From the NCBI GenBank assembly GCA_964572145.1, contig CAZNES010000006.1, positions 22,603 through 86,602 of the forward strand: a stretch of DNA of 64,000 nt. The letters are read 5' to 3'. The notes beneath the pieces are model-generated. The model worked only from the letters and a program-made list of their open reading frames with translations, did no database searches and had not been told where the DNA came from. A program made the translations under genes and the position numbers. Below are positions 4,131-60,997 of this stretch, piece by piece (the stretch's first letter is position 1; every line of letters begins with the position of its first letter). This DNA comes from an uncultured Syntrophobacteraceae bacterium. Its GTDB lineage: Bacteria > Desulfobacterota > Binatia > UBA9968.

Positions 4131-4156
4131 ATCCGTCGGGCTCTTGGAGGATTAGA

Positions 4157-4477: not shown

Positions 4478-4511
4478 TGTCGCGAAGCGTTGAATTAGAA
4501 GGGTAAAAGAA

Positions 4512-5963
<1,452 letters not shown>

Positions 5964-5983
5964 GAGAGAATTGGTAATTTTCC

Positions 5984-10485: not shown

Positions 10486-10494
10486 CCTCTCAGT

Positions 10495-26511: not shown

Positions 26512-26527
26512 GGAAGGAGCAAAAAAA

Positions 26528-28807
26528 ATGAAGACCATGGAAGTTTCCCGCAGACAATTTCTCAAAGGCGCCGGCGCGCTCATCGTCAGCTTCAACCTCT
26601 TTCCGGCGGCGCGAAATGTCTTGGCCGCCCAGTTCGCGACGTTGCCTTCCGGCGACATCGATCCACAGTCGCTCGATTCCTGGCTCGCGATCGGCAAGGA
26701 CGGCAGCGTCACGTTCTACACCAGCAAAGTCGAGCTCGGCACAGGCACGATCACGGCATTGGCGCAGATCGTCGCGGAAGAATTAGATGTGTCTTTCGAC
26801 CGCGTCAAAATGGTTTACGGCGACACTTCTCAAACAATCGAGCAAGGCTCCACCGTCGGGAGCCGCAGCATCGAGCGCGCCGGCCCGCAGGTGAGACAGG
26901 CCGCGGCGGCGGCGCGCCAGGAGCTGCTCAAGCTCGCCGCCGCGCGGCTCGGCGCGCCTGTCGAGAAACTAACGGTCCAAAACGGCGTGGTCAGCGATGG
27001 CGCAAAGAAAGTTTCTTACGGCCAACTGATCGGCGGCCAGCGCTTCAACGTCAAGATCACCGCCACCGGCGCCGGCAACGAGATGAAGGTCGCGCCCGAA
27101 GTGAAGCCGAAAGATCCAAAGGATTATAAAATCGTCGGCCAGCCGATGAAACGCATGGACTTGCCCGGCAAGCTTACGGGAGAACACCTCTACGCGCACG
27201 ACGTGCGCATTCCCGGGATGCTGCACGGCCGCGTGGTCCGTCCGCCGGTCGTCAATACCGAGCCGACCAGCATTGACGAGAGCTCAGTTAAAAATATTCC
27301 CGGCTTCGTGAAGGTCGTGCGCGAGGGAAGCTTTGTCGGCGTCGTAGCCAAGACGCAGTGGGCCGCGATCAAATCCGTCGAAGCGCTGAAGGTCACCTGG
27401 GCCCCTCCCACGACGAAGCTGCCGGCGAACCCAGAGGCGTTATTCACTTACTTGAAAAACACCAAGCCCGCGCGCACGCTGAAGGCAGTGGAGAAAGGGA
27501 ATCCGGCAGAAGCCTTCGACAAGGCCAAAAAGACCTATCAGGCGAGCTACCGCTGGCCTTTTCAGATGCACGGCATGATCGGCCCGTCGTGCGCCATCGC
27601 CGACGTCAAGGGCGACAAGGCAACCATCTGGTCGGGACCGCAGGGGCCGTTCAGAACGCGCGCGACGGTCGCGACGATTTTAAAAATTCCCGAGCAGAAC
27701 GTGCGTGTGATTTACCACGAAGCTTCCGGTTCCTACGGGCGCATGAGCACCGACGACGGCGCCGAAGACGCGGCGCTGCTTTCGCGCGCGGCCGGCGCCC
27801 CGGTGCGCGTCCAGTGGTCACGCCAGGACGAACATGGCTGGGAACCCAAAGGTCCGGCGCAGGTGGACGAGGTGAAGGCGGCGATCGACGGCGACGGCAA
27901 GCTCATCGCGTGGGATTTCGTCGATTATGGCCAACCGTGGACGGCTTCAGGATCGACGCCGCTCCTCGCTTCGCTGCAGGTCGGCATCAAGCCCAATAAT
28001 CCCGGCGGTTCCAACGGCACGCAGAGCAGTGGCGAGATTTACGCGGTGCCCAATCAAAAGATCGTTGCCGAACATATCAATTGGCACTTTGCGGAACCGA
28101 TTCCGTTGCGCACGGGCAATCTGCGCGCGCCCGGCGACTCGGCGCGCTGCTTCGCGAGCGAGTGTTTCCTCGACGAGATCGCGGCCGATCTGGGCGTCGA
28201 TCCGGTCGAATTTCGCCTGCGCCACACGGCGGAGCCGCGCGGCGCGGACTGTCTCAAGGCCGCCGCCGACAAGGCGCAATGGCAAAAGCGTTCGTCGCCC
28301 GGTCCCGCTCAGAGCGGGAACATCGCCAAGGGTCGCGGTGTCGCGCTCGCGCGCAGAGCGGGCGCTTACGCCGCGGCGGTGGCCGACGTGGAAGTGAACC
28401 GAACGACGGGCCAGGTCGTCGTCAAGCGCGTCGTCTGTTCGCACGACTGCGGACTGATTGTGAATCCCGACGGCGTCAACAATCAGATCGAAGGCAACGT
28501 GATCCAAGGCGTCAGCCGCGCGCTGTTCGAGGAAGTCACCTTCGATGAGAAAGGCGTGACCAGCCTGGATTGGAAGACGTATCCGATTCTTAAATTCAGC
28601 GACGTGCCGGAAATTGAAATCGTGCTCATCAACCGGCCCGAGATGCCGTCGCTGGGCGCCGGCGAGCCGTCGACGGTCCCCGTTCCGGCCGCGATCGCCA
28701 ACGCGATCTTCGACGCGACCGGCGCGCGGCTGCGCGAAGCGCCGTTCACGCCGGCGCGGGTTTTGACCGCGCTTAAAGCTGCGCCAGCTGCGAATCAGAA
28801 GAGTTGA
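26528..28807 (+). CDS. molybdopterin-dependent oxidoreductase large subunit (isoquinoline 1-oxidoreductase beta / aldehyde dehydrogenase-like) with Tat signal
   Basis: N-term MKTMEVSRRQFLKGAGALIVSF twin-arginine motif; 759 aa MoCo-binding domains. Confidence 0.85.
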   Translation: MKTMEVSRRQFLKGAGALIVSFNLFPAARNVLAAQFATLPSGDIDPQSLDSWLAIGKDGSVTFYTSKVELGTGTITALAQIVAEELDVSFDRVKMVYGDTSQTIEQGSTVGSRSIERAGPQVRQAAAAARQELLKLAAARLGAPVEKLTVQNGVVSDGAKKVSYGQLIGGQRFNVKITATGAGNEMKVAPEVKPKDPKDYKIVGQPMKRMDLPGKLTGEHLYAHDVRIPGMLHGRVVRPPVVNTEPTSIDESSVKNIPGFVKVVREGSFVGVVAKTQWAAIKSVEALKVTWAPPTTKLPANPEALFTYLKNTKPARTLKAVEKGNPAEAFDKAKKTYQASYRWPFQMHGMIGPSCAIADVKGDKATIWSGPQGPFRTRATVATILKIPEQNVRVIYHEASGSYGRMSTDDGAEDAALLSRAAGAPVRVQWSRQDEHGWEPKGPAQVDEVKAAIDGDGKLIAWDFVDYGQPWTASGSTPLLASLQVGIKPNNPGGSNGTQSSGEIYAVPNQKIVAEHINWHFAEPIPLRTGNLRAPGDSARCFASECFLDEIAADLGVDPVEFRLRHTAEPRGADCLKAAADKAQWQKRSSPGPAQSGNIAKGRGVALARRAGAYAAAVADVEVNRTTGQVVVKRVVCSHDCGLIVNPDGVNNQIEGNVIQGVSRALFEEVTFDEKGVTSLDWKTYPILKFSDVPEIEIVLINRPEMPSLGAGEPSTVPVPAAIANAIFDATGARLREAPFTPARVLTALKAAPAANQKS

Positions 28808-35277: not shown

Positions 35278-35488
35278 ATTTTCCTCCTGATTCCAGCACC
35301 GGACTATAGGCACGGGGTTGAGAAATTGCAACGAACCGCGGCATTTTCGCTCCTTCGATTTCTCCGCCTCTCTCTGCGATTTCCTTGACTTCCCGGCGGT
35401 TTTCCAATAGAAAAAAATTGGTTGTCCGCGGCGGTTCCAGAGCTTCTCAACGGCCCTGTCTTAACGTGACCCCCAACGTGGTCAATTA

Positions 35489-35845
35489 ATGAGCGATCCT
35501 TATTTTCCCGTCCTGGTAATTTTTTTCATTGCCGGGCTGGTTGTGTTGGGACTACTCCTGATCGCCCAAACGGCCGGTCCCAAAAGGCCGAGCCCGGTCA
35601 AGGCGGAACCTTTCGAGTCGGGAAATCCGCCGAAAGGCGACGCCCGCATTCGTTTTCCGGTAAAGTTCTATCTGGTAGCGATGCTTTTTCTCATCTTCGA
35701 CTTGGAAGCCGTTTTTCTCTATCCCTGGGCCGTCACGTTTCGCCGCCTGGGGATTTTCGGCCTTGTGGAGATGGGGATTTTTTTGCTCATCGCCGTGATC
35801 GGCTTTATGTATGCCTGGAAAAAAGGCGCGCTGGACTTGGAGTAA
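35489..35845 (+). CDS. nuoA: NADH-quinone oxidoreductase subunit A
   Basis: 118 aa, three TM helices, ..FLYPWAV.. Confidence 0.9.
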   Translation: MSDPYFPVLVIFFIAGLVVLGLLLIAQTAGPKRPSPVKAEPFESGNPPKGDARIRFPVKFYLVAMLFLIFDLEAVFLYPWAVTFRRLGIFGLVEMGIFLLIAVIGFMYAWKKGALDLE

Positions 35846-35851
35846 TTTTCA

Positions 35852-36415
35852 ATGCCGGAAGAGAGCCCGCGCATTCAATATCTCAGCGGCAAATTCGGCG
35901 CGCTGATTCTTGAATCGCATGTGCTCCACGGCGACGAGACGGTCGTCATCCGCCGGGAGGGATTGCTGGAGATCGTCCGCGCTCTCAAAGAAGATCCCAA
36001 AATGGACTTCGATTTTCTCGCGGACCTTACCGCGGTCGATTATTTGGGAAAAAAAGAGCCGCGCTTCGAAGCGGTCTATCACCTGCTTTCCTTGCAGAGC
36101 CATCGCCGCATCCGCGTCAAAGTCCCGGTTCCGGAAGATCAGCCGGAAGTCGATTCTTTGACGCCGCTGTGGAAGGGGGCGAACTGGCTGGAGCGCGAGG
36201 TCTGGGACATGTTCGGCATTCGCTTTCGCGGCCATCCCGATCTCCGACGCATCCTGCTCTACGAGGAGTTCCGCGGCTATCCGCTGCGGAAAGACTATCC
36301 GGTGAACCAGCGCCAGCCTCTGATTCCCGAGCGGCCGCTCGCGGGAACTTTCGTCGATACCCGGTCGGACAATAAACTCTTGCAACTGAAGCAGAAGGCT
36401 GAGCGCAAGCCATAA
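35852..36415 (+). CDS. nuoC: NADH-quinone oxidoreductase subunit C
   Basis: ..EREVWDMFGIRFRGHPDLRRILL.. 30-kDa subunit signature; begins 6 bp after nuoA (no nuoB in between). Confidence 0.9.
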   Translation: MPEESPRIQYLSGKFGALILESHVLHGDETVVIRREGLLEIVRALKEDPKMDFDFLADLTAVDYLGKKEPRFEAVYHLLSLQSHRRIRVKVPVPEDQPEVDSLTPLWKGANWLEREVWDMFGIRFRGHPDLRRILLYEEFRGYPLRKDYPVNQRQPLIPERPLAGTFVDTRSDNKLLQLKQKAERKP

Positions 36416-36423
36416 GCGGCGCC

Positions 36424-37614
<1,191 letters not shown>

Positions 37615-37635
37615 ATCGCAAAGGTAGGGGCGGGT

Positions 37636-38136
37636 TTGAAACCCGCCACTACGCCGAGAAAAATGGCCTTGGAATTTTCACCCGAGACGCGCAAAAATTT
37701 AGACGAGATCGTCGGCCGCTATCCGAAAAAAGAGGCGGCGATGCTGCCGGTCCTTCGACTGGCTCAGGAGGAGTTCGGCTATCTCAGCGCCGAGGCGATC
37801 GAATACGTCGCCGCGATCATGGGCGTCCCGGCGGCGCGGGTCTACGGCGTCGTTACGTTCTACACGATGCTCAACATGAAGCCGATCGGCAGGCACCACG
37901 TCCAGGTCTGCCGGACGCTCCCCTGCGCGCTGGCGGGCGCGGAGCGGATGACCGCGGCGATCAAGGCGAAGCTCGGCATCGGAGTCGGAGCAACCACGGC
38001 GGACGGAAAATTCACGCTCTCGGAAGTCGAGTGCCTAGCCTCCTGCGGCACGGCGCCGATGATGCAGGTGAACGACGACTACTACGAAAACCTGAACGAG
38101 CAAAGCGTGGGCGAAATTCTCGACAAGCTGAAGTAA
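37636..38136 (+). CDS. nuoE: NADH-quinone oxidoreductase subunit E (2Fe-2S)
   Basis: ..VQVCRTLPCALAGAE..ECLASCGTAPMMQVN.. ; TTG start behind AGGTAGGGG, alternative ATG at 37663. Confidence 0.85.
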   Translation: MKPATTPRKMALEFSPETRKNLDEIVGRYPKKEAAMLPVLRLAQEEFGYLSAEAIEYVAAIMGVPAARVYGVVTFYTMLNMKPIGRHHVQVCRTLPCALAGAERMTAAIKAKLGIGVGATTADGKFTLSEVECLASCGTAPMMQVNDDYYENLNEQSVGEILDKLK

Positions 38137-38138
38137 CG

Positions 38139-39410
38139 ATGGAAAAGATTCTGCTACGGAACGTTGGCGCGCCGGACTCGTACACGATCGGAGTTTACCG
38201 TTCCCGCGGCGGCTACGGCGCGCTGGAGAAAGTGCTGCGCGAGATGTCGCCCGAGCGGCTCATCGGCGAGATTAAAGCTTCCGGCCTGCGCGGGCGCGGC
38301 GGCGCGGGTTTTCCCACCGGCATGAAGTGGGGTTTCGTTCCCAAGGACAATCCCAAGCCGAAATACGTCGTCTGCAACGCCGATGAGAGCGAGCCAGGAA
38401 CGTTCAAGGACCGGCTGCTCATCGAGAAAGATCCGCACGCGATCGTCGAAGGCACGATCATCGCCGCTTACGCGATTCGGTCGCACACCGCCTTCATCTA
38501 CATCCGCGGCGAGTTCAGCTTCGGCGCCAAAGTACTGGAGCGCGCAATCGCCGAAGCCAGAGCGGCGGGATATCTGGGAAAAAATATTCTCGGCTCGGGT
38601 TACGACCTCGACTTGATTCTCCACCGCGGCGCGGGCGCGTATATCTGCGGCGAAGAAACCGGGCTGCTCTCGTCGTTGGAAGGCGGCAAAGGCTGGCCCA
38701 AGGTCAAGCCGCCGTTCCCGGCGACGCACGGCCTCTTCGGCTGCCCGACGGTCGTGAACAACGTCGAGACGTTGGCTTCCCTCCCATGGATCATCGAACA
38801 GGGCGCGGCGCGATACGCGGCGATCGGCACCGAGAAAAGCAAGGGCACGAAACTCTTCAGCGTCAGCGGCCATATCAAAAAACCCGGGGTCTACGAAGTG
38901 GATATGGGTTATCCGTTCAAGAAATTTCTCCAAGAAGATTGCGGCGGCGTGCCGAACGGAAAAAAGTTGAAGGGCGTGATTCCCGGCGGCGCGTCGATGC
39001 CGGTGCTGCGGCCTGACGAGCTCGACGGCATCACGATGGACTACGAATCGTTCCAGGCCGCCGGCACGCTGCTCGGCTCGGGCGGCGTGATCGTTATGGA
39101 CGAATCGACCTGCATGGTCCGCGCCGCGTGGAACATCTCGCGGTTCTTCGAGCATGAGTCCTGCGGGCAGTGCAGCCCGTGCCGCGAGGGCTGCCACTGG
39201 ATGGAAAAGATTTTCCGGCGCATCGAGCGCGGCGAAGGAAAGACAGGCGATTTGGATCTCATCCTCAGCGTGAGCGGCAACATCGCAGGCAACACGATCT
39301 GCCCGTTCGGCGACGCGGCCGCCATGCCCGCCGCCGCCTTCATCAAGAAATATCGCGACGAGTTCGAAGAGCACATCGCGCGCAAGCGGTGCACGGTTTC
39401 GGCGAGTTAA
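38139..39410 (+). CDS. nuoF: NADH-quinone oxidoreductase subunit F (FMN, 4Fe-4S)
   Basis: MEKILLRNV..GLRGRGGAGFPTGMKW..; C-terminal CGQCSPCREG; track ORF 37602..39410 N-extension is out-of-context and rejected. Confidence 0.9.
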   Translation: MEKILLRNVGAPDSYTIGVYRSRGGYGALEKVLREMSPERLIGEIKASGLRGRGGAGFPTGMKWGFVPKDNPKPKYVVCNADESEPGTFKDRLLIEKDPHAIVEGTIIAAYAIRSHTAFIYIRGEFSFGAKVLERAIAEARAAGYLGKNILGSGYDLDLILHRGAGAYICGEETGLLSSLEGGKGWPKVKPPFPATHGLFGCPTVVNNVETLASLPWIIEQGAARYAAIGTEKSKGTKLFSVSGHIKKPGVYEVDMGYPFKKFLQEDCGGVPNGKKLKGVIPGGASMPVLRPDELDGITMDYESFQAAGTLLGSGGVIVMDESTCMVRAAWNISRFFEHESCGQCSPCREGCHWMEKIFRRIERGEGKTGDLDLILSVSGNIAGNTICPFGDAAAMPAAAFIKKYRDEFEEHIARKRCTVSAS

Positions 39411-39414
39411 TTTC

Positions 39415-41004
39415 ATGGCGGATCCGGTAAAAATCACCATCGACGGGCGGGAAGTCGCGACGACCAAGGGCAAGACCGTCATCCAGGCGGCGGCGGATGC
39501 GGGAATCGCCATTCCCCATTATTGCTACCATCCGAAGCTTACGATCGCGGGAAACTGCCGCATGTGTCTCGTCGAGATCGAAAAAATGCCCAAGCTCCAG
39601 ATCTCCTGCAACACCCTTGTGACCGAGGGCATGGCGGTCAAGACGCAAAGCCCGAAAGTTTTGGAAGCGCGCCGCGCGGTGATGGAGTTTCTGCTCATCA
39701 ACCATCCGCTCGACTGTCCGATCTGCGACCAGGCGGGCGAATGCTGGCTGCAAGACTACTACATGGAGCACGACCTCAGCGCGAGCCGCTTCGACGAAAG
39801 AAAAGAGCACGAGCGCAAGCGCGAGATCTTCGGCCCGTACGTTGTCTTCGACGGCGAGCGCTGCATCAAGTGCACCCGCTGCGTGCGCTTTTTGCAGGAA
39901 GTGACCCACACGGACGAGCTCACGGTGGTGAACCGCGGCGACGATTCCACGATCGCTTTGTTTCCGGGAGAAATTTTGGACAACCCGCTTTCGGTCAACG
40001 TCGTGGACATCTGCCCGGTCGGCGCGCTCACCGACCGCGATTTCCGCTTCAAAGTCAGGGTGTGGTACCTCGAGAAGACGAAGTCAGTCTGTCCCGGCTG
40101 CAGCACGGGCTGCAATATTTCGCTCGAGACCTATCAGAACCGCATCGCGCGCTTCAAGCCGCGAGTCAACGAAGCCGTGAACAGTCATTGGTTGTGCGAC
40201 GAGGGGCGCTACTCTTTTCATGCCCTCACCGAAGGCGAGCGGCTGACGACACCGATGATCCGCCAGGAAGGCGGCCTGGTGCCGGCGGGTTGGGACACCG
40301 CTCTGCAAGCCGCGATCGCGGGTCTCGGCGCCAACGGACCACTCCTAGGTGTCCTCTCCGGAAGAAACACGAACGAAGAAGCGTTTCTCTTCACCCGTCT
40401 GATGAAAAATATTTCCGCGCAGGCCGAACTTGAAGTTTTCTACCGTGAGAGAGAGCTGACCGAAGTCGAGAAAGTTCTCAAGAGCCCGGACCGCTCGCCG
40501 AACTTTCGCGGCGCGCGCGACATGGGCGTCCATTCGAACGGCGGCTTCGACTCGTTGGCGGGCCGGCTGGTTGCCGGGAATTTTCGCGGCGCCTATATCG
40601 TCGGCGAAGATCTAATCAATCTGCCCGGCGACGGCGAGAAAATCCAAACCGCCCTGGAGAAGCTTTCGTTTCTGGTCGTTCAGGACACGCGGCTCACGCC
40701 GACGGCCAAGCTGGCGCAGGTGGTCCTTCCCGCCACACACTTCGGGGAAAAAGAAGGCACCTACACGAACCGCCGCGGCAGAGTGCAGAAACTCAATGCC
40801 GCGATCGTCCCGCCTTTGGGCGCGCTTCAGGACTGGGAAATTTTTTCCCGCTTGCTCGCGCGAGCGGGAGAGAAAGCCGCGTATGCAACCGCGGCGGAAA
40901 TCTTTTTGGCGCTTGCCCGTGAGATTCCGGCTTACGGCGGACTCAGCTACGACAAGATCGGCGATCAGGGATTTCAGCTCGGCAACGAGACCCAACAACC
41001 ATGA
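39415..41004 (+). CDS. nuoG: NADH-quinone oxidoreductase subunit G, short form (529 aa)
   Basis: ..HYCYHPKLTIAGNCRMCLVEIEKMPKLQISC..HPLDCPICDQAGEC..CIKCTRCVRF.. Confidence 0.9.
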   Translation: MADPVKITIDGREVATTKGKTVIQAAADAGIAIPHYCYHPKLTIAGNCRMCLVEIEKMPKLQISCNTLVTEGMAVKTQSPKVLEARRAVMEFLLINHPLDCPICDQAGECWLQDYYMEHDLSASRFDERKEHERKREIFGPYVVFDGERCIKCTRCVRFLQEVTHTDELTVVNRGDDSTIALFPGEILDNPLSVNVVDICPVGALTDRDFRFKVRVWYLEKTKSVCPGCSTGCNISLETYQNRIARFKPRVNEAVNSHWLCDEGRYSFHALTEGERLTTPMIRQEGGLVPAGWDTALQAAIAGLGANGPLLGVLSGRNTNEEAFLFTRLMKNISAQAELEVFYRERELTEVEKVLKSPDRSPNFRGARDMGVHSNGGFDSLAGRLVAGNFRGAYIVGEDLINLPGDGEKIQTALEKLSFLVVQDTRLTPTAKLAQVVLPATHFGEKEGTYTNRRGRVQKLNAAIVPPLGALQDWEIFSRLLARAGEKAAYATAAEIFLALAREIPAYGGLSYDKIGDQGFQLGNETQQP

Positions 41005-42104
41005 TCATCGACTTCGCGATCATCGCGGCCAAGGCCTTTCTCGTTCTCTTCATGGTGCTCAACCTGGCCGGCGTTCTGGGCTGGATCGAGCGCAAAGGCA
41101 GCGCGCTGATTCAAGACCGCATCGGCGCCAACCGCGCATCGATTTTCGGCTTCGCCGGCATGGGGCTCGTCAACACGCTGATCGCCGATCCGATCAAGTT
41201 TCTCTTCAAGGAAGATTTCATTCCGGCCACGGGCGACCGCCTGCTGCACACGCTGGCACCTTGCCTGGCACTTTTCCCGGCGCTGGTGACGTTCGCTGTC
41301 ATCCCATTTGGCGACGTTCTCGTCCTCGGCGGCCGCGAGATCAATCTTCAAGTCGCGAACTTGAATATCGGCGTGCTTTATATTTTCGCCATGGCGTCGC
41401 TCGGCGTCTACGGCATCGTCATCGGCGCGTGGGCCTCGAACAACAAGTTCTCTCTTCTCGGCGGCGTCAGAGGCGCCGCGCAGATGATCTCCTACGAGAT
41501 CGCGATGGGCCTGTCGGTCATGGGCGTGCTGATGGTCTACGGCACGCTCGAGCCGCAACAGATGGTGCGGGCGCAGGGCGAGCTCCTCGGGGGCTGGCTA
41601 CCGGCGTGGGGATTTTTTCTCCAGCCGGTCGCGTTCCTGCTTTTCTTTACCGCGGCGGTCGCGGAGACCAAGCGCATACCCTTCGATATCCCCGAGGGAG
41701 AGTCGGAGATCGTCGCCGGCTATCGCACGGAATATTCCGGCGGAAAATTTCTCATGTTCTTCGCCGGCGAGTTCGCCGAGATCGTCACGGCGGCGGGGCT
41801 TGTCACGACGCTTTTCTTCGGCGGCTGGCAGGTTCCCTGGCTCATGCGCGACGGCTTTCACTTTCCCTGGGGCGGCGCGATTGTTTTATCGCCGCTCGCT
41901 GTGACCGTGTTGCAAGTCGCGGCCTTCACCCTCAAAGTCGTCTTCTTCTGCTGGCTGCAAATCCTCCTGCGCTGGAGCCTGCCGCGCTTTCGTTACGACC
42001 AGGTGATGCGCCTCGGCTGGAAGATGTTGCTGCCGGTCGCGCTCGTGAACGTCGTGGTCACTGCCGTTTGGATCGTGCTCCGCGAACGGCTTTCCAATCC
42101 ATGA
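41001..42104 (+). CDS. nuoH: NADH-quinone oxidoreductase subunit H
   Basis: ..LGWIERKGSALIQDRIGANRA..; 4-bp overlap with nuoG. Confidence 0.9.
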   Translation: MIIDFAIIAAKAFLVLFMVLNLAGVLGWIERKGSALIQDRIGANRASIFGFAGMGLVNTLIADPIKFLFKEDFIPATGDRLLHTLAPCLALFPALVTFAVIPFGDVLVLGGREINLQVANLNIGVLYIFAMASLGVYGIVIGAWASNNKFSLLGGVRGAAQMISYEIAMGLSVMGVLMVYGTLEPQQMVRAQGELLGGWLPAWGFFLQPVAFLLFFTAAVAETKRIPFDIPEGESEIVAGYRTEYSGGKFLMFFAGEFAEIVTAAGLVTTLFFGGWQVPWLMRDGFHFPWGGAIVLSPLAVTVLQVAAFTLKVVFFCWLQILLRWSLPRFRYDQVMRLGWKMLLPVALVNVVVTAVWIVLRERLSNP

Positions 42105-42111
42105 ACGAACG

Positions 42112-42594
42112 ATGATTCTCTTTCTCATTCTCGCCGCGCTGTCGATTATCTCTTCGCTGCTGGTGATCTTTCCGCGTAGCGTGGTGCGCAATGCCATGGC
42201 GCTCGCGGCGACGCTTTTTTTCGTCGCCGTTCTGTTCGTCACGCTGGACGCTCCGATGGTCGGCGCCCTGCAGGTGCTGGTCTACGCGGGCGCGATCATG
42301 ATCCTGATTCTTTTCGTCATCATGCTGCTCAATCCCGCCGCGTTGGAGGCGCGGCCGGTCGCCTGGGGAATGACGGGCGCGCTCGCGGCAGTCGCGTTGC
42401 TACTGGAGCTGGTCGCCATATTTTTCTATCGGCCGTCGTCCGCAGAACAGCCGTCGGTAACGGTCGGCTTCGGCGGGCCGGAAGCGCTGGCGCAGAGCCT
42501 CTTCACCGACTTCGTTCTCCCTTTCGAGATCGCCTCCGTCCTGCTCTTGGTCGCGATCATCGGCGCGGTCGCGCTGGCAAAGAGGGAAGGCTAA
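42112..42594 (+). CDS. nuoJ: NADH-quinone oxidoreductase subunit J
   Basis: 160 aa, 5 TM, ..LQVLVYAGAIMILILFVIMLL..; follows nuoH directly (no nuoI). Confidence 0.85.
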   Translation: MILFLILAALSIISSLLVIFPRSVVRNAMALAATLFFVAVLFVTLDAPMVGALQVLVYAGAIMILILFVIMLLNPAALEARPVAWGMTGALAAVALLLELVAIFFYRPSSAEQPSVTVGFGGPEALAQSLFTDFVLPFEIASVLLLVAIIGAVALAKREG

Positions 42595-42599
42595 CTGGG

Positions 42600-42705
42600 A
42601 CAATGCAAAAGTCAAAGTGCAAAATGCAAATTTCAAAATGCACAAGGCCGAAAATCCGGCAATTTTGCATTTTTCATTTTTCATTTTTCATTTTGCAATC
42701 GGGGT
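42600..42705. repeat. AT-rich hairpin repeat (TGCAAAA heptamer arrays) between nuoJ and nuoK
   Basis: GCAAAAGTCAAAGTGCAAAATGCAAATTTCAAAATGCACA - loop GGCCGAAAATCCGGC - CAATTTTGCATTTTTCATTTTTCATTTTGCAATCGG; same family as the 10.5-kb element. Confidence 0.7.
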
Positions 42706-42710
42706 GAACA

Positions 42711-43013
42711 GTGGTCCCGCTGCATTACTATCTCGCGCTCAGCGCCGTGCTCTTCGCCATCGGCGTCGCCGGGGTTCTCATCCGGCGCGACATCATCGTC
42801 ATCCTCATGTCGATCGAGCTGATGCTGAACGCGGTCAACCTGACGTTTATCGCGTTCGCACGCTTTCTCGGCTCGATGGACGGGCAGGTGATCGTCTTTT
42901 TCGTCATGACCGTCGCGGCGGCGGAGGCCGTGGTGGGGCTGGCGATCGTCATCTCGGTTTTCCGGCACCGGCGGACGTTGGACCCGCAGGATATGCAGCT
43001 TCTCAAATGGTAG
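42711..43013 (+). CDS. nuoK: NADH-quinone oxidoreductase subunit K
   Basis: 100 aa, 3 TM, ..[17 protein letters not shown]..; GTG start. Confidence 0.9.
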
Positions 43014-43017
43014 CGCT

Positions 43018-43072
43018 CCCAATGTTGAATTTTGAATTATGAATTTTGAATTGAAATCCGATTCGGAAATCG
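43018..43072. repeat. tandem TGAATTN heptamer repeat (x4) between nuoK and nuoL
   Basis: TTGAATTTTGAATTATGAATTTTGAATTGAAAT followed by small palindrome TCCGATTCGGA. Confidence 0.6.
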
Positions 43073-43075
43073 CAG

Positions 43076-44977
43076 ATGGGAACTAGCCTGCTGCGCCTCA
43101 TACCGCTCTTTCCGCTGGTCGGCGCCGCGGTGAATATTTTTTTCGCGACGCGCGTCAGCCGAAAATTCGCCGGCGTGCTCGCTTGCGCCGCCGTGGGGCT
43201 GTCGTTTCTCGTCTCGCTGCAAATTTTTGCGCTCCTCTCTCCGACGGAAGTTTTTCACGATACCCTTTTTACCTGGATCGATTCCGAGCCGTTCAAGGCG
43301 AGCCTTTCGCTGCAAGCCGACGCCTTGACCGCGGTGATGCTGCTCGTGATCACCGGCATCGGTTTCCTTATCCACGTTTATTCGTTGGGCTACATGGGTC
43401 ATGATGAAGGCATGGTGCGCTACTTCGCGTACCTCAATCTCTTCGTCTTCTTCATGTCGCTGCTGGTCCTGTCCGATAATCTGCTGCTGCTCTTCGTCGG
43501 TTGGGAAGGGGTCGGGCTTTGCTCGTATCTTTTGATCGGCTTCTGGCACCAGGATCACACCAACACGATCGCCGGCAACAAGGCCTTCATCGTCAACCGC
43601 ATCGGCGACTTCGGCTTCATCCTCGGCCTCTTGCTGCTTTTCTGGGAGCTCGTCCGCCACGGCGCACCGAGTCTCAACTTCTCCGACTTACAGCAGAGCG
43701 CCCATCTCCTGCGGCCTGAAACCGTAACGATAGTCACGCTGCTGCTTTTTGCCGGCGCGACCGGCAAGTCGGCGCAAATCCCGCTCTTCGTTTGGCTCCC
43801 CGACGCGATGCAGGGGCCGACGCCGGTGAGCGCGCTGATCCACGCGGCCACGATGGTCACCGCCGGCGTCTATATGATGGCGCGGCTCAATTTTCTTTTC
43901 GCGCTGGCGCCCACGACGCTGGCCGTGATCGCCACCGTCGGCGCGCTCACCGCTTTTTTTGCTGCGACCGTCGCCGTGGCGCAAAACGACATCAAGCGCG
44001 TGCTGGCCTACTCCACGGTGAGCCAGTTGGGCTACATGTTCCTGGCGGTCGGCGTCGGCGCGTTTAGCGCGGCGGTCTTCCACCTCTTTACGCATGCGTT
44101 CTTCAAGGCCTGTCTCTTTCTCGGCTCGGGGAGCGTCATCCACGCGCTCGGCGGAGAGCAAGATATGAGAAAGATGGGCGGGCTCCGGCGCCATTTGCCA
44201 GCGACCTACTGGACATACTTAATCGCCACGCTGGCGATTTCCGGCGCGCCGCTGACGGCGGGATTTTTTTCCAAAGACCGGATTCTTTGGGAGACTTATT
44301 CGAGTCCTCTCGGTTCCGTCCAGCTATGGGCGCTGGCCTGGATCACAGCCGGGCTCACCGCCTTTTATATGTTCCGCCAGTTGTTCATGGTGTTTCACGG
44401 CGAGTCCCAAGCAGCAGAATCCGTCAAATCTCACATCCACGAGTCACCGGCGTTGATGACCGTGCCGTTGGTGTTGCTGGCGCTGGGTTCGGTCTTCACG
44501 GGATGGTTATCGACCCCCGACTTTATGTGGGGAAGCGTTTGGGATGCTTGGTTGCAACCGATTTTCGGCGCCCCCAAAACCGCCGCGCACGCGGCAGTCA
44601 ATGATGAATTGTTCCTGACCGCGATCACGCTTGGCATAGCGGCGCTGGGAATCTTCGTCGCGTTCGTTTTTTACGGCCGGGAGAGCAGAATCGCCGAGCG
44701 GATTGCCGCTACGCGACTCTATCGTTTGCTCGCTGGCAAGTACTACGTCGATGAACTTTACGACCGTCTCTTCGTGCGGCCGTTCGCCGTGTGCTCTGTC
44801 TGGCTCGCGCGGCGCTTCGATCCGGGAGTGATCGACGGCATCGTCAACGGCGTCGCCGCGAGCGTCCGCGCGACGAGCCTCTCCTGGCGCCGGCTTCAGA
44901 GCGGCAACGTGCAGCACTACTTGTTCGCTTTTTTGGCCGGGACGCTTTTGATCTTTGCGTATTTTTTGAGGTGGTGA
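43076..44977 (+). CDS. nuoL: NADH-quinone oxidoreductase subunit L
   Basis: 633 aa antiporter-like subunit; ..LLFVGWEGVGLCSYLLIGFW.. Confidence 0.95.
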   Translation: MGTSLLRLIPLFPLVGAAVNIFFATRVSRKFAGVLACAAVGLSFLVSLQIFALLSPTEVFHDTLFTWIDSEPFKASLSLQADALTAVMLLVITGIGFLIHVYSLGYMGHDEGMVRYFAYLNLFVFFMSLLVLSDNLLLLFVGWEGVGLCSYLLIGFWHQDHTNTIAGNKAFIVNRIGDFGFILGLLLLFWELVRHGAPSLNFSDLQQSAHLLRPETVTIVTLLLFAGATGKSAQIPLFVWLPDAMQGPTPVSALIHAATMVTAGVYMMARLNFLFALAPTTLAVIATVGALTAFFAATVAVAQNDIKRVLAYSTVSQLGYMFLAVGVGAFSAAVFHLFTHAFFKACLFLGSGSVIHALGGEQDMRKMGGLRRHLPATYWTYLIATLAISGAPLTAGFFSKDRILWETYSSPLGSVQLWALAWITAGLTAFYMFRQLFMVFHGESQAAESVKSHIHESPALMTVPLVLLALGSVFTGWLSTPDFMWGSVWDAWLQPIFGAPKTAAHAAVNDELFLTAITLGIAALGIFVAFVFYGRESRIAERIAATRLYRLLAGKYYVDELYDRLFVRPFAVCSVWLARRFDPGVIDGIVNGVAASVRATSLSWRRLQSGNVQHYLFAFLAGTLLIFAYFLRW

Positions 44978-44981
44978 GGGC

Positions 44982-46520
44982 GTGAAGGATTTGAGCCTGC
45001 TGGTATTTCTTCCCACGCTCGGCGCGTTGGGGCTGCTTTTTATTCCACGGCGGCAAACGCGCGCGCTTTTCAAAGCAGCGCTGGGCGTGAGCCTGCTCAC
45101 GTTCTGCCAGTCTCTGTGGATTCTTTACCGCTTCGATCTCGGCGTGGCTGAAATGCAACTCGTCGAGCGGCTGCGCTGGATTCCCGCCTACGGGATCGAG
45201 TACGCCGTCGGCATCGACGGGCTCAGCCTTTTTCTTGTGTTGCTCACGGTTCTCCTCACGCCGATTGCGATCCTGGCGTCCTGGACGATCCACGACAAAG
45301 TCAAAGAGTATCTTTTCTTCATGCTGGTCCTGGAGACCGGCATGCTCGGCGCTCTCGTCGCCATCGATTTGTTTCTCTTTTACGTCTTTTGGGAAGTGAT
45401 GCTCGTGCCGATGTATTTTCTGATCGGCGTGTGGGGCGGACCGCGCCGCGTCTACGCCGCGGTCAAGTTTGTGATTTACACGATGGCCGGCAGCTTGCTG
45501 ATGCTCGTCGGAATCATTTTTCTGGCGACGCGGAATTTTCAGGTGACGCAGGTCTTGACCTTCGACCTTCTGCGCATCGCCAATCTCCATCTACCTTACG
45601 ACGAGCAGATGTGGTTGTTCCTCGCCTTCGCGCTTTCCTTCGCCATCAAAGTCCCGCTCTTTCCGCTCCACACGTGGCTTCCCGACGCGCACGTCGAGGC
45701 GCCGACCGCCGGTTCGGTGATTCTGGCCGGCGTTCTCCTCAAGATGGGGACTTACGGATTTTTGCGCTTCGCGATTCCGCTGTTTCCCCAAGCCGCGCTG
45801 GCGGCGGCGCCCGTCGTCACCGCCCTCGCGGTCGTCGGCATTATTTACGGCGCCATGGTGGCGATGATGCAGGACGATCTCAAAAAACTCGTCGCCTATT
45901 CTTCGGTTAGCCATTTGGGCTTTATCATGTTGGGGCTGTTCGCGTTCAATCTACCGGGAATTGAAGGCGCGGTGTATCAGATGCTCAACCACGGTCTCTC
46001 CACCGGGGCGTTGTTTCTCCTGGTCGGCATGATCTACGAACGGCGGCACACGCGCATGATCGACGACTTCGGCGGCTTGTGGAAACAGATTCCGGTCTTC
46101 TCGGCATTTTTTCTCGTCGTCACGTTTTCTTCCATCGGGTTGCCGGGGCTCAATGGCTTCGTCGGCGAATTTTTGATCCTGCTGGGCGCGTTCGAGGCAA
46201 CCCCGGTAGCGGCGGCGTTCGCCGCGACCGGCGTCGTTCTGGGAGCGATCTATATGCTGTGGATGTTTCGCCGCGTGGTGTTCGGCCCTCTCGCCCGGCC
46301 GGAAAATCAGCGGCTCCAAGACCTGAATTTTAGAGAGATATGCATTCTGGCGCCGATCTTAGCGCTGATCTTTTTCATGGGCGTTTACCCCCAGCCGTTC
46401 TTGAGCCGAATGAAAAATTCGGCCCGGCTGGTTATTCAGCGAGTCGAGAGTCAACGGCTGGCCCTGCTGCTCGTCCGCGGCGAGACCATTTCAGAGGAGA
46501 AAGCGGTCCGTGGAAACTAA
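44982..46520 (+). CDS. nuoM: NADH-quinone oxidoreductase subunit M
   Basis: 512 aa antiporter-like subunit; ..FYVFWEVMLVPMYFLIGVWGG.. Confidence 0.95.
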   Translation: MKDLSLLVFLPTLGALGLLFIPRRQTRALFKAALGVSLLTFCQSLWILYRFDLGVAEMQLVERLRWIPAYGIEYAVGIDGLSLFLVLLTVLLTPIAILASWTIHDKVKEYLFFMLVLETGMLGALVAIDLFLFYVFWEVMLVPMYFLIGVWGGPRRVYAAVKFVIYTMAGSLLMLVGIIFLATRNFQVTQVLTFDLLRIANLHLPYDEQMWLFLAFALSFAIKVPLFPLHTWLPDAHVEAPTAGSVILAGVLLKMGTYGFLRFAIPLFPQAALAAAPVVTALAVVGIIYGAMVAMMQDDLKKLVAYSSVSHLGFIMLGLFAFNLPGIEGAVYQMLNHGLSTGALFLLVGMIYERRHTRMIDDFGGLWKQIPVFSAFFLVVTFSSIGLPGLNGFVGEFLILLGAFEATPVAAAFAATGVVLGAIYMLWMFRRVVFGPLARPENQRLQDLNFREICILAPILALIFFMGVYPQPFLSRMKNSARLVIQRVESQRLALLLVRGETISEEKAVRGN

Positions 46521-47949
46521 TCTCACGCCTCTTCTCCCCGCCGCCGAAGTGCTTTTGACGGCGCTTGCCGTGCTGGTGCTCGACCTTTTCGTGCCCAAAA
46601 ACGAGAAGGGAATTCTCGTCTGGATCGGTCTTATCGGCTTAGCCCTTGCGGGCGTGATGGCCTTTTTCTTGCGGGGCGGTCACGAAGGCGCCTTTCAAGA
46701 CACCATCCGGCTCGATCCCTTCGCAATTTTCTTTACGCTGTTCTTTCTCGCAGCGGCTGCGCTCACGATTCTTTCCTCGGTCGGTTACGTGAGGGAAACC
46801 GGCATTCGCGAGGGAGAATTCTACGCGCTCGTTTTGCTCGCCACCTTCGGAATGATTCTCATGGCCGCCGCCAACGATCTCATTCTTTTCTTTCTCGGTT
46901 TGGAGACGATGTCGATCGCCGTCTACGTTCTCACCGGATTGTGGCGCGAACGCAGCCTGGCTGCCGAGGCGGCGATGAAATATTTTCTCATCGGCGCATT
47001 CGCCACCGGCTTTCTTATCTACGGCATCGCCCTCATTTACGGCGCGAGCGGCTCGACGCATCTCGGCCGCGTAGCCGCCGCGCTGACTCACCCGAAGAGC
47101 CAGGGGTCGATCTTTCTTTCGGCCGGTGTCTTCCTGCTGTTCGTCGGATTGGCTTTCAAAGTCGCCGCGGTGCCGTTTCATTTCTGGGTTCCCGACGTGT
47201 ACGACGGCGCACCCACGCCGGTCACCGCCTTCATGGCGGTCGCCGTCAAGGCCGCCGCCTTCGCGGGGTGGGCGCGGATCTTTCTCTACCAACTCTCGCC
47301 GCTGCACGACGAATGGGCGCTGCCGGTAAAAGCGCTGGCGATTCTCACGATGACCTTTGGAAATGTACTGGCGATCTCGCAGTCGAGCGTAAAGCGAATG
47401 CTCGCTTACTCGAGCATCGCGCATGCGGGTTATCTGCTCATCGCGCTCGTCGCCGGAGGCGAGACGGGCGGACAGGCTCTGCTGTTTTATCTCGTGAGCT
47501 ACGCGGCGATGACTCTGGGCGCGTTCGGCGTGCTCATCGCTTTGAAAGACGGAGAGCGGGACAACGAGACGTACAACGATTTTGCCGGGCTGGGCTTCAA
47601 GCGGCCGTTTCTCGGAATGGCGATGGCGCTTTTCATGCTTTCTCTCACCGGCTTTCCGCCGCTTGCCGGCTTTACCGGGAAATTTTATCTCTTTCGCTCC
47701 GCGGTGGTTGCAGGACACACCGATCTCGCGATCATCGGCGCGCTCAACAGTCTTTTGTCCGTGGTTTATTATCTACGGGTGATCGTGATGATGTACATGG
47801 AAGAGGGAGGAGCGGAGGGAAAACGATTCGCCGTCGCGCCGTATCTTTATCTCGCGATCGCGCTCGCCGTGATTGGAACCGTCTACTTCGGAGTGCTCCC
47901 CGCGCCGGCGCTGGATCTAAGCCTCAAGTCTTTTTCTTCCTTGCGTTAG
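46510..47949 (+). CDS. nuoN: NADH-quinone oxidoreductase subunit N
   Basis: 479 aa; ..LILFFLGLETMSIAVYVL..; start overlaps the nuoM end. Confidence 0.9.
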   Translation: METNLTPLLPAAEVLLTALAVLVLDLFVPKNEKGILVWIGLIGLALAGVMAFFLRGGHEGAFQDTIRLDPFAIFFTLFFLAAAALTILSSVGYVRETGIREGEFYALVLLATFGMILMAAANDLILFFLGLETMSIAVYVLTGLWRERSLAAEAAMKYFLIGAFATGFLIYGIALIYGASGSTHLGRVAAALTHPKSQGSIFLSAGVFLLFVGLAFKVAAVPFHFWVPDVYDGAPTPVTAFMAVAVKAAAFAGWARIFLYQLSPLHDEWALPVKALAILTMTFGNVLAISQSSVKRMLAYSSIAHAGYLLIALVAGGETGGQALLFYLVSYAAMTLGAFGVLIALKDGERDNETYNDFAGLGFKRPFLGMAMALFMLSLTGFPPLAGFTGKFYLFRSAVVAGHTDLAIIGALNSLLSVVYYLRVIVMMYMEEGGAEGKRFAVAPYLYLAIALAVIGTVYFGVLPAPALDLSLKSFSSLR

Positions 47950-48927: not shown

Positions 48928-51237
48928 TTGCCGCTCAGTAAGCTCGTCGGCGCCAGGGTAAAGCGGCGTGAAGATCCGAGATTGATTCGGGGTCTGGCAG
49001 GCTATGTCGATGACATTCGCTTAGCCGGGACTCTCAGCGTGGCTATTCTGCGCAGCCCGCACGCGCACGCAAAGATTATCTCCATCCGCACCGAACCCGC
49101 GCTCAGTCATCCGGGAGTCGTCGCCGTATTCTCCGGAAGAGAGCTTCGGGATGAAATTGGGCCGTTGCCGGTCGACAGTCAAAATCCGACGCTGCGAATC
49201 CCCAAGCATTATGTCCTCGCCGTCGAAAAAGTTTGTTATGCCGGCGAAGGCGTGGTGGTGGTGGTCGCGGAGGACCGCTACGCCGCCGCCGACGCGCTTC
49301 CTCTGATCGAAGTCGATTACGAGCCGCTCGCGGTCGTTACGGACCCGGAACTGGCGCTCACAAAAGAGAGTCCTGTAATTCATCCGGAATGGCCGGACAA
49401 CGTCGCTTTTCGCTCGAGCCGCAGCCAGGGCGATTTGACCGCGGCTTTCGAACGGGCCGACCGGATCGTCAAGGAAAGGCTCGTTCATCAACGTCTCGCG
49501 CCGGTGGCTATCGAAACGCGCGGCGTGCTGGCGCGCTACCTGCCGGAAAAAAAAGAATTGACCGTCTGGTCTTCCACGCAGATCCCGTATCTGCTCAAGA
49601 GCCACTTGTCCGAAATGCTCAAGCTGCCTGAGGAGCAGGTGCGCGTGATCGCTCCCGAAGTGGGCGGCGGCTTCGGCAGCAAGCTCAATATCTACGCGGA
49701 GGAGGCGCTGGTGGCTTTTCTCGCGCTGCGGCTGGGCCGCCCGATCAAATGGATCGAAGAGCGCCGGGAAAATATGCACTCCACGATTCACGGCCGCGGA
49801 CAGGTCGGCGAAATCGAAGTCGCGGTAAAAAAAGATGGTAAGATTCTGGGACTTAGATCCAGAGTCGTCGCCGATATCGGCGCTTATCATCAGCTCTATA
49901 CGCCGGGGATTCCGCGCTTCACCGGCTTGATGCTTTCGGGTTGCTACAAGATCCCCGCGATGAGCATCGAGGTCACGGGCGCCTTCACTAATAAAATGTC
50001 CACGGATGCTTATCGTGGAGCAGGGAGACCCGAGGCGACTTACGTGATCGAGCGGATGATGGACCGGATCGCGGGAGAGCTGGGCATCGATCCGGTGGAG
50101 GTGCGGAGAAAAAATTTTCCCAGGCCGGCGGAATTCCCTTTCGCGACCGCGACCGGACTGAGTTACGATAGCGGAAATTATCAAGCGAGTCTCGACAAAG
50201 CCTTAAAGCTTGTGGGCTACCGGAAGCTCAGGCGCGAGCAAAAGCGGCTGAGAAAACAGCGGAGGTATCTTGGCATCGGTCTCTCCACGTATGTGGAAAT
50301 CTGCGCCATGGGGCCGGGCTCGGGAGAGTATGGCAGCGTGAGCGTCGAGCCCTCCGGGAAAGTGACCGTCCTCACCGGCGTATCGCCCCACGGGCAGGGG
50401 CAGGAAACTTCGTTCGCGCAGATCGTCGGCGATGAGCTCGGCGTCGAGCTTGACGAAATCACGGTGCTGCACGGCGACACCGCCGTGGTGGAGAGCGGCG
50501 TCGGTACTTTTGGCAGCCGCGCCACGGCCGTGGGCGGCGCCGCAGTGCTCCAGGCGGCGGAGCGAGTGAAGGAGAAGGCACGCGAGATCGCCGCGCATCT
50601 CTTCGAGGCGGACCCTGAAGATGTCGTCTTTACCGGCGGAAAATTCAGCGTCAAGGGCGTGCCGAAAAAAAACCTCACGCTCAAGCAGATCGCGCGCGAA
50701 GCGCATACGGCGGGGAAGCTTCCCAAGGGGATGGCGCCGGGTCTTTCAACCGCCGCTACCTTCGAGCCATCCAACTTCACTTTCCCGTTCGGCGCCCACG
50801 TCTGCGTGGTCGAGGTCGATCCCGAGTCGGGGGAGATCGAAATAAAAAAATACGTCGCCGTGGACGATTGTGGCAAGGCGATCAATCCGCTTTTGGTCGA
50901 TGGCCAGATACACGGCGGTATCGTTCAAGGGCTGGGACAGGCGCTCTTCGAAGAAGTGCTCTACGAGGAAAACGGCCAGCTCATCACCGGGAGCTTGATG
51001 AGCTACGCTTTGCCGCACGCCGAGAACCTGCCACGGCTCCAACTCGCTCGAACCGAAACGCCGACGCCCGTCAATCCGCTCGGCGCCAAGGGAGTTGGGG
51101 AGGCCGGCACGATCGGCTCCACGCCGGCCATCGTCAACGCGGTGGTGGACGCGCTCGCTCCGTTCGGCGTTACCCATATCGACATGCCGCTCAAGCCCGA
51201 GAAAATCTGGCGCTTGTGCCGTGGAACAAAAGCCTGA
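48928..51237 (+). CDS. xanthine-dehydrogenase-family molybdopterin large subunit, form-II CoxL-like (AYRGAGR motif), orphan
   Basis: 769 aa; active-site loop ..STDAYRGAGRPEATYVIERMMD..; no adjacent FAD or 2Fe-2S subunit genes. Confidence 0.85.
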   Translation: MPLSKLVGARVKRREDPRLIRGLAGYVDDIRLAGTLSVAILRSPHAHAKIISIRTEPALSHPGVVAVFSGRELRDEIGPLPVDSQNPTLRIPKHYVLAVEKVCYAGEGVVVVVAEDRYAAADALPLIEVDYEPLAVVTDPELALTKESPVIHPEWPDNVAFRSSRSQGDLTAAFERADRIVKERLVHQRLAPVAIETRGVLARYLPEKKELTVWSSTQIPYLLKSHLSEMLKLPEEQVRVIAPEVGGGFGSKLNIYAEEALVAFLALRLGRPIKWIEERRENMHSTIHGRGQVGEIEVAVKKDGKILGLRSRVVADIGAYHQLYTPGIPRFTGLMLSGCYKIPAMSIEVTGAFTNKMSTDAYRGAGRPEATYVIERMMDRIAGELGIDPVEVRRKNFPRPAEFPFATATGLSYDSGNYQASLDKALKLVGYRKLRREQKRLRKQRRYLGIGLSTYVEICAMGPGSGEYGSVSVEPSGKVTVLTGVSPHGQGQETSFAQIVGDELGVELDEITVLHGDTAVVESGVGTFGSRATAVGGAAVLQAAERVKEKAREIAAHLFEADPEDVVFTGGKFSVKGVPKKNLTLKQIAREAHTAGKLPKGMAPGLSTAATFEPSNFTFPFGAHVCVVEVDPESGEIEIKKYVAVDDCGKAINPLLVDGQIHGGIVQGLGQALFEEVLYEENGQLITGSLMSYALPHAENLPRLQLARTETPTPVNPLGAKGVGEAGTIGSTPAIVNAVVDALAPFGVTHIDMPLKPEKIWRLCRGTKA

Positions 51238-51526: not shown

Positions 51527-51874
51527 TCAATCCGACTTTGCGGGATCGGCCGCCGGTGCGTTGCGTGGAATCATCTCGAAGACCACGCGCTCCAAAAGCG
51601 GCGGCGAGTCGCGCAGGTTGAGGACGTGCACGCGGAGCTTTTCGTCCGCGACTTGCCGCGCCCGACAGGAAAAAAACTCCCCATCCGCTTTGACCTCCAC
51701 GTTAGGGTTCTTGATCATGTTCCGGCACCAGTGCTTGCTCTCGATCTTTCTTGACGCGGCGTAGAATTTGCCGTCGAGAAAAACCATCCTCAGCTCCACC
51801 GTGCGCGGCAGACCCGTGCGCCGCCCGATCGTCGTGAGATCGCCGACGAAGACGGATTCGGTTTTTAAATTCAC
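51527..51874 (-). CDS. deazaflavin(F420)-dependent nitroreductase-like (DDN/PNPOx split-barrel family)
   Basis: ..TIGRRTGLPRTVELRMVFLDGKFYAASRKIESKHWCRNMIKNPNVEVKADGEF.. matches the F420H2-dependent reductase family pattern. Confidence 0.65.
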   Translation of the reverse strand: MNLKTESVFVGDLTTIGRRTGLPRTVELRMVFLDGKFYAASRKIESKHWCRNMIKNPNVEVKADGEFFSCRARQVADEKLRVHVLNLRDSPPLLERVVFEMIPRNAPAADPAKSD

Positions 51875-58204: not shown

Positions 58205-58217
58205 AAAATACTCTCGC

Positions 58218-60988: not shown

Positions 60989-60997
60989 AAGCAATCC

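Follow-up and report, generated by a model that had tools for sequence, protein, structure and literature searches.

What is to be made of a complex I operon that contains neither nuoB nor nuoI? The quinone site of complex I depends on the iron-sulfur (Fe-S) cluster N2, which NuoB carries, and the sole route for electrons from NuoG to N2 leads through the clusters N6a and N6b of NuoI. This path from N6a/N6b to N2 and on to quinone is known from the structures of the Thermus thermophilus, Escherichia coli and mitochondrial enzymes. The question is raised by a 64-kb stretch of DNA (from here: the window) on contig CAZNES010000006.1, positions 22,603 to 86,602, from an uncultured bacterium of the class Binatia in the phylum Binatota, whose members are widespread in soils and sediments. 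An initial annotation had described a 12-gene complex I cluster lacking exactly these two genes and had left the choice between a supply of both subunits in trans and a rewired enzyme. Here we report that the cluster is probably one part of a complex I gene set that is dispersed in the genome, with NuoB and NuoI encoded in trans; hence, we regard it as a split operon and not as a new kind of enzyme.

All coordinates refer to the window. The 12 nuo genes are tightly packed on the + strand at 35489-47949 and were assigned by Pfam as NuoA, C, D, E, F, G, H, J, K, L, M and N:

35489-35845, + strand: nuoA, 118 amino acids (aa); PF00507, E 5e-37
35852-36415, + strand: nuoC, 187 aa; PF00329, E 3e-49; NCBIfam NuoC_fam 153 bits, cut-off 122
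36424-37614, + strand: nuoD, 396 aa; PF00346, E 8e-108
37663-38136, + strand: nuoE, 157 aa; PF01257, E 3e-58; ATG at 37663
38139-39410, + strand: nuoF, 423 aa; PF01512, PF10589 and PF10531 (flavin mononucleotide (FMN)-binding, SLBB, 4Fe-4S); ATG at 38139
39415-41004, + strand: nuoG, 529 aa; Pfam Fer2_4, NADH-G_4Fe-4S_3, Fer4_Nqo3 and Molybdopterin; TIGR01973 NuoG 483.6 bits, cut-off 470
41001-42104, + strand: nuoH, 367 aa; PF00146, E 6e-106
42112-42594, + strand: nuoJ, 160 aa; PF00499, E 1e-34
42711-43013, + strand: nuoK, 100 aa; PF00420, E 2e-29
43076-44977, + strand: nuoL, 633 aa; PF00361, PF00662
44982-46520, + strand: nuoM, 512 aa; PF00361, PF01059
46510-47949, + strand: nuoN, 479 aa; PF00361

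The true starts of nuoE and nuoF are masked by two long overlapping open reading frames (ORFs); they were taken from the sequence and agree with the gene lengths in relatives, in which NuoE also has 157 aa. All 12 ORFs are intact and stand in the canonical nuoA-N order, which had rightly been called textbook apart from the two gaps. The membrane-arm subunits NuoA, H, J, K, L, M and N score above the curated Pfam cut-offs throughout (PF00507, PF00146, PF00499, PF00420 and three times PF00361), with the three antiporter-like subunits NuoL, M and N being complete by the same assignment. The N-module, consisting of NuoE, NuoF with its FMN site and NuoG, is present with the standard FMN and Fe-S domains according to Pfam and NCBIfam, and PF01512 in NuoF covers profile positions 1-149 of 150. 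NuoD aligns over its full length to the mitochondrial 49-kDa subunit with 382 bits, and to solved complex I chains with 363-382 bits. Its quinone-site histidine (HPATHG) and tyrosine (DRLNYVS) are conserved and align with the positions in the mitochondrial 49-kDa protein. No second copy of other nuo genes was found in the window. Judged by these domain assignments, the cluster probably belongs to an ordinary proton-pumping NADH:quinone oxidoreductase of the 14-subunit (Nuo14) lineage, of whose 14 core subunits it encodes 12, and it looks like a working enzyme minus two parts and not like a different machine.

NuoG is short, with 529 aa compared to 632-910 aa in solved bacterial NuoG chains, and still passes the NuoG equivalog model. 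Its N-terminal Fe-S domains are complete; it is the molybdopterin-like part that is shortened. The NuoG proteins of relatives are similarly short (521-528 aa).

The position usually held by nuoB is occupied by nuoC and that of nuoI by nuoJ. As read from the junction sequences, 6 nt separate nuoA from nuoC (35846-35851) and 7 nt separate nuoH from nuoJ (42105-42111), in agreement with the spacing given initially. Neither the nuoB between nuoA and nuoC nor the nuoI between nuoH and nuoJ that define a Nuo14 operon is present in the window. The missing subunits had also been said not to be fused to their neighbours, and this holds: because a single Pfam family spans essentially the entire protein in the case of NuoA, C, D, H and J alike, none of them carries an additional NuoB or NuoI domain. 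Searches of the whole window were likewise negative. With tblastn, NuoB and NuoI of E. coli gave no match (best E > 1), nor did NuoB and NuoI of Binatia (best E 0.2) or the stand-alone Binatia NuoB and NuoI-like proteins treated below (best E 0.03). The E. coli and T. thermophilus sequences served as tblastn probes only and were superseded by locus-derived sequences and a hidden Markov model (HMM). The NuoI HMM found nothing at E ≤ 1e-3 in any stop-to-stop ORF of at least 50 aa of the window. Reading frames for NuoB or NuoI that might have been overlooked at nuoA/nuoC or nuoH/nuoJ were looked for by tblastn and HMM; none was found, nor any remnant of either gene at the two junctions. Thus, the absence of nuoB and nuoI from the 12-gene cluster is borne out by Pfam assignment, tblastn and the NuoI HMM. 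An identical NuoC protein with the same nuoA-nuoC junction exists in three independent metagenome assemblies. The homologs of this NuoC point to Candidatus Binatia, phylum Binatota, as its source.

Is this layout peculiar to one genome? Alignment of NuoD against one genome per GTDB species yielded 80 Binatia loci with NuoD proteins 67-97% identical to that of the window, long-read chromosomes among them. Assemblies with this cluster include OZ244621.1 (4.46 Mb; nuoD at about 1,754,300, locus range 1,744,276-1,765,463), CAXXLF010000002.1, CAVYDL010000009.1, CAVYTU010000014.1 and JBGQBP01, to which L008 belongs (NuoD 97% identical). Not one of these 80 species-level genomes has a NuoB or NuoI gene within 10 kb of nuoD. 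In 77 of the loci nuoA is directly followed by nuoC, at a median distance of 9 nt and a maximum of 109 nt, and in 48 nuoH is directly followed by nuoJ (median 13 nt, maximum 348 nt); no NuoB lies between nuoA and nuoC in any of the 77 relatives showing both genes, and no NuoI between nuoH and nuoJ in any of the 48. The order A-C-D-E-F-G-H-J-K-L-M also recurs in relatives whose NuoC is 69% and 81% identical. A 465-nt gap between nuoC and nuoD in one relative (L006/L007:10562-11025) was considered as a remnant of nuoB and rejected, as it contains no recognisable ORF. Hence, a gene set that had been called unusual is indeed so in general, but within the phylum Binatota it is the rule (80/80 species).

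Since the layout without B and I is found in 80 of 80 species with NuoD 67-97% identical, it argues for a functional enzyme under selection and not for decay. The fragmentation goes further in parts of the phylum. Besides the arrangement ACDEFGHJKLMN of window-like genomes, we found ACDEHJKLMN (n = 3), ACDEHJKN (n = 5) and, in 13 of the 80 loci, ACD on its own, with unrelated sequence over at least the next 3.6 kb. The main clusters of the Binataceae lack F and G and take the form ACD, ACDEHJKN or ACDEHJKLMN (L063-L087). These gene orders make dispersal of the nuo genes a trait of the lineage, with the exit of B and I from the operon as its oldest and most constant part.

In relatives, NuoB genes are located outside the operon. 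One such locus is a paralogous cluster. At the start of locus L017, whose NuoD is 83% identical to that of the window, lies the 3' end of another NuoN-like gene. A search with this fragment led to a Binatia family located in 11-gene clusters of the order nuoA-B-C-D-H-I-J-K-L-M-N, which lack E, F and G. With the MlaC gene of the contig of L017 as anchor, both clusters were found on one contig in NCBI DATDFN010000030.1 and in two independent ENA assemblies. On DATDFN010000030.1 a paralogous nuoB-C-D-H-I-J-K-L-M-N, with a NuoB of 170 aa (PF01058) and a NuoI of 186 aa (Fer4), lies 8.2 kb upstream of a nuoA-C-D-E without B and I. The genes in between encode MlaC, a hydrolase, two E1 dehydrogenase proteins, a glutathione S-transferase (GST), cytochrome c, GroES, GroEL, HSP20 and a cupin; the segment with GST, cytochrome c, GroES, GroEL, cupin and nuoA is common to the window and this relative, and the window diverges from it upstream of GST. 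At 35-55% identity between their subunits, the two clusters are old paralogs. In one locus (L179:12093-21515) a Fic protein, a type I restriction-modification system and a DDE transposase lie directly downstream of the 11-gene cluster, at the place of MlaC in other relatives.

Another kind of locus carries a stand-alone nuoB, here named Bx, that encodes a protein of 175-181 aa. A search with the NuoB of the 11-gene cluster detected Bx just upstream of that cluster on Binatia contigs from NCBI (GCA_036000905.1), JGI and ENA. All four cysteines that bind cluster N2 are kept (ACCAMEY, GACASTGG, GCPPRPE), and Bx passes the NCBIfam NuoB equivalog NF011392 with 273.7 bits at a cut-off of 271, as well as the NuoB subfamily models. 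It belongs to sequence clusters at 90% identity that comprise 71 to 491 members and are labelled Candidatus Binatia and Candidatus Binataceae by NCBI. A metagenome scan with Bx returned 80 loci. At 59-74% identity these were in-operon NuoB genes of canonical A-B-C-D-E-F-G-H-I-J-K operons from other lineages, whereas at 75-96% the gene lay downstream of Fe-S assembly genes, with rrf2 and the 11-gene cluster following it, headed a nuoB-nuoF-nuoG operon, or stood alone. In an identity matrix of pairwise local alignments, NuoB of canonical 14-gene operons is 63-74% identical to Bx, compared to 47-50% for the NuoB of the 11-gene cluster. The same matrix gives 47-64% identity to the canonical operons for NuoA, C, D and H of the window and 35-48% for those of the 11-gene cluster, the canonical proteins being the closest relatives of those of the window. 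Because the matrix thus places Bx with the canonical operons, we take Bx to be the NuoB that originally belonged to this operon lineage and has been relocated.

On one contig (L094:1023-11502) Bx closes a full Fe-S assembly operon, in the order apbC, apbC, sufB, sufC, sufD, sufS, sufU, sufT, Bx, a short sufT-like gene and rrf2, with nuoA-B-C-D-H of the 11-gene cluster directly downstream of Bx and rrf2. In three further loci (L090-L092) Bx follows a ferredoxin gene, an FNR-like gene and iscU and precedes a sufT-like gene and rrf2; in two others (L175, L176) it lies between a gene pair for a radical-SAM protein and an FdxA-type ferredoxin, and rrf2. Loci labelled Candidatus Binataceae (L099:9989-13468, L106:10016-13466, L097:5523-8960 and others) have Bx in a three-gene nuoB-nuoF-nuoG operon. 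As the main clusters of the Binataceae also lack F and G, this arrangement ties Bx to the NADH-dependent complex.

As a separate observation, the window itself contains an atypical Fe-S assembly locus at 2901-7204, with two class-V aminotransferase (cysteine desulfurase-like) genes, an IscA/SufA-like gene and a SufB-like gene. The SufB-like protein shares 84.5% identity with SufB of L094, and neither sufC nor sufD was seen beside these genes.

Taken together, these data suggest the following course of events. In the ancestor of the Binatota, nuoB and nuoI would have left the operon; the two proteins would since have been made from other loci and would join the complex during its assembly. NuoB most likely comes from Bx, the presumed original nuoB of the operon lineage. 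In relatives Bx is the last gene of a suf or isc operon, beside a SufT-like gene and an Rrf2-family regulator and directly upstream of the 11-gene cluster, and in the Binataceae it is part of the nuoB-nuoF-nuoG operon instead. The genome from which the window derives presumably carries the genes in question, and their products would assemble with the 12 subunits encoded in the operon. The position of nuoB among suf or isc genes under an Rrf2 regulator might couple the assembly of complex I to Fe-S supply. We count in favour of trans supply that all subunits besides B and I are present, intact and canonical, and that NuoD retains the quinone-site residues. According to the supplement of Murphy et al. 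2021 (PMC8262859), every Binatota genome has the complete set of complex I subunits, and trans supply is consistent with this.

The source of NuoI could be a cognate gene at another locus, the NuoI of the 11-gene cluster or a third partial set. Two candidates were rejected. A stand-alone NuoI-like gene lies 4 kb from Bx in L092; its mates at 90% identity end a third set, nuoA-B-C-D-I, on a 1.78-Mb contig (L174) and a 389-kb contig (L177), and it was assigned to that set. The 105-aa Fer4 gene beside Bx in L175 and L176 is, as we read its motif spacing, an FdxA-type ferredoxin. No NuoI-like domain was found in the ORFs flanking Bx in the other contexts. The third set (L174:6730-10585, L177:4338-10621, L092:1-4636) is about 36-55% identical to both other sets. 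It adjoins a NuoE-NuoF fusion of 677-707 aa and a HoxU/NuoG-N-terminal-like Fe-S protein fused to a domain binding cyclic nucleotide monophosphates; L092 has just the NuoI-like gene of this set together with these two neighbours.

Several results weigh against a supply in trans as outlined above. Neither nuoB nor nuoI for the genome under study was found within the 64 kb, and the 35 kb upstream of the operon contain no 11-gene cluster, unlike in the relative. Among the fetched loci, Bx and a cluster without B and I were never on the same contig; a 10-kb walk downstream of the Bx-linked cluster in L092 met only a restriction-modification/transposase island (Fic, type I). Moreover, Bx is not adjacent in L088 and L089, the 11-gene cluster contexts closest to the group of the window. 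A cognate NuoI of the canonical type was detected by tblastn and HMM in none of the Binatia-like loci among the approximately 180 fetched. The NuoI-like protein of L092 is 40-46% identical to canonical NuoI, compared to 41-43% for the NuoI of the 11-gene cluster; being no closer to canonical NuoI than the paralog, it is not the relocated cognate.

With these points in mind, could NuoB, NuoI or both of the paralogous nuoABCDHIJKLMN serve both complex I isoforms? Such subunit sharing, which we consider possible but rather unlikely, would be in keeping with the location of a cluster with NuoB and NuoI 8 kb upstream of one without them on a single contig, with the negative search for a cognate NuoI and with the distance between Bx and the paralogous cluster in L088 and L089. 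However, at 35-55% identity between the paralogous subunits the interfaces would have to accept a foreign partner. Throughout Binatia the cognate NuoB persists as a gene of its own, with 71 to 491 members per cluster at 90% identity, which would be needless if the NuoB of the 11-gene cluster were shared, and the NuoI search took in the fetched loci, not whole genomes. A more far-reaching version is that two paralogous enzymes of the Binatota, one NADH-dependent and one without the NADH module, obtain their connecting Fe-S subunits from one shared pool, with a single NuoI as the least that they would have in common. With nuoB relocated to a SUF/ISC operon under an Rrf2 (IscR-like) regulator, Fe-S supply, and not operon transcription alone, would then set which of the two is built. 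We regard this version as doubtful.

The other explanation offered initially, a rewired enzyme in which the 12 subunits function without NuoB and NuoI, by another electron path or in a non-redox, antiporter-like role, appears very improbable. All that speaks for it is that the operon lacks the two genes. Yet the histidine and tyrosine of the quinone site, the partners of cluster N2, are retained in NuoD; NuoE, F and G are of the standard type; and the cluster contains no extra domain or gene able to carry substitute clusters. It is established from structures that the quinone site lies too far from the NuoG clusters for electrons to cross the gap unless N6a, N6b and N2 are in place, and no other protein of the cluster could bridge it. 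Finally, NuoB and NuoI genes exist in Binatia genomes, as seen in the paralogous cluster of the relative and as reported in PMC8262859. Of the initial either/or, trans supply is well supported in relatives, by the paralogous cluster and the stand-alone nuoB, whereas rewiring found no support. The weakest alternative, that the genes were lost by assembly error or that the cluster is a dying remnant, has nothing but the gaps themselves to recommend it and is already refuted by an identical junction in three independent assemblies, by the same layout in 80 species-level genomes including long-read chromosomes, by 12 intact ORFs with NuoD 67-97% identical across the phylum, and by junctions free of B or I remnants.

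Beyond the gene content, two non-coding elements belong to the operon region. The first precedes nuoA:

35385-35413, + strand: promoter-like site upstream of nuoA; TTGACT (35385-35390), 17-nt spacer, TAGAAA (35408-35413)

The block ATTTCCTTGACTT and a downstream TA.AAAA are invariant in four aligned upstream regions, from genomes with NuoC 69-100% identical, and such conservation suggests that the site may act as the promoter of the operon. A strict consensus scan missed it, and promoter and terminator scans of the operon gave nothing above shuffled expectation. The second element separates nuoJ from nuoK:

42595-42710, no strand: A/T-rich palindromic insertion between nuoJ and nuoK, 116 nt; relatives mostly have a gap of 2-8 nt

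An insertion at the same site was found only in L008, L038 and L057. For the insertion a hairpin with -27 kcal/mol (z -1.6) is predicted. A related copy is located at about 10490-10660 of the window, between ispG (gcpE) and proS, and the element also occurs in L023 and L019. With terminal inverted repeats AAAGTGCAAAATG.AAA / TTTTCATTTTGCA, it looks like an element of the miniature inverted-repeat transposable element (MITE) or repetitive extragenic palindromic (REP) type that sits within the operon and is no part of the enzyme.

Elsewhere in the window, an 1887-aa protein encoded at 17661-23324 on the - strand appears to be a tandem duplication of UvrA, with two sets of UvrA interaction and ABC domains; a separate UvrA-like protein of 842 aa is encoded at 195-2723 on the + strand. 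Three gene sets for molybdoenzymes of the xanthine dehydrogenase/CO dehydrogenase family are located at 26047-28807, 48928-51237 and 57335-60994 (- strand), and a gene resembling F420H2-dependent quinone reductases at 51527-51874.

The layout represents a natural experiment in complex I assembly, in which the two linking Fe-S subunits are expressed apart from the other twelve and the cognate nuoB sits among genes of Fe-S biogenesis (apbC, sufBCDSUT, iscU, rrf2). If subunit sharing or a gating by Fe-S supply were true, this would be a new mode of regulating the composition of the respiratory chain; otherwise, it is a documented case of operon fragmentation. There is also a practical consequence. 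Complex I has been surveyed by Spero et al. 2015 (PMC4453560), and surveys of this kind or pipelines that score complex I by operon completeness would misread the Binatota. The literature searched yielded no description of nuo clusters without B or I, or of nuoB within suf operons.

How does the cluster compare with known systems? The canonical 14-gene nuoA-N (nqo1-14) operon of Thermus thermophilus and Paracoccus, which also corresponds to the mitochondrial core, has the same order for the 12 genes present. It differs in that the window and the 80 relatives lack nuoB and nuoI within the operon, and in the short NuoG of the window with 529 aa. Those operons from metagenomes that come closest to the cluster carry the full set A-B-C-D-E-F-G-H-I-J-K.

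The nearest published precedent found is NUO-2 of Nitrospina gracilis, in which nuoB2 stands alone, the main cluster is nuoACHIJKLMN, and nuoE, G, D and F lie elsewhere (Lucker et al. 2013, PMC3578206). Common to both are the dispersed complex I set, the separate nuoB and a nuoA beside nuoC. In NUO-2, however, nuoI stays in its cluster, whereas the cluster of the window instead holds E, F and G. Moreover, NuoF2 and NuoG2 of NUO-2 have altered patterns of cofactor binding and extra Fe-S clusters (PMC3578206); compared at the domain level, NuoF and NuoG of the window show only standard domains and not the altered ones of the Nitrospina/Kuenenia type. Complex I-like enzymes of 11 subunits without an N-module are known as well (Moparthi & Hagerhall 2011, PMC3144371; Desulfitobacterium hafniense, PMC11238625), and the Binatia paralog nuoABCDHIJKLMN is one of these. 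Set against them, the cluster of the window presents the complementary pattern, having E, F and G and lacking B and I.

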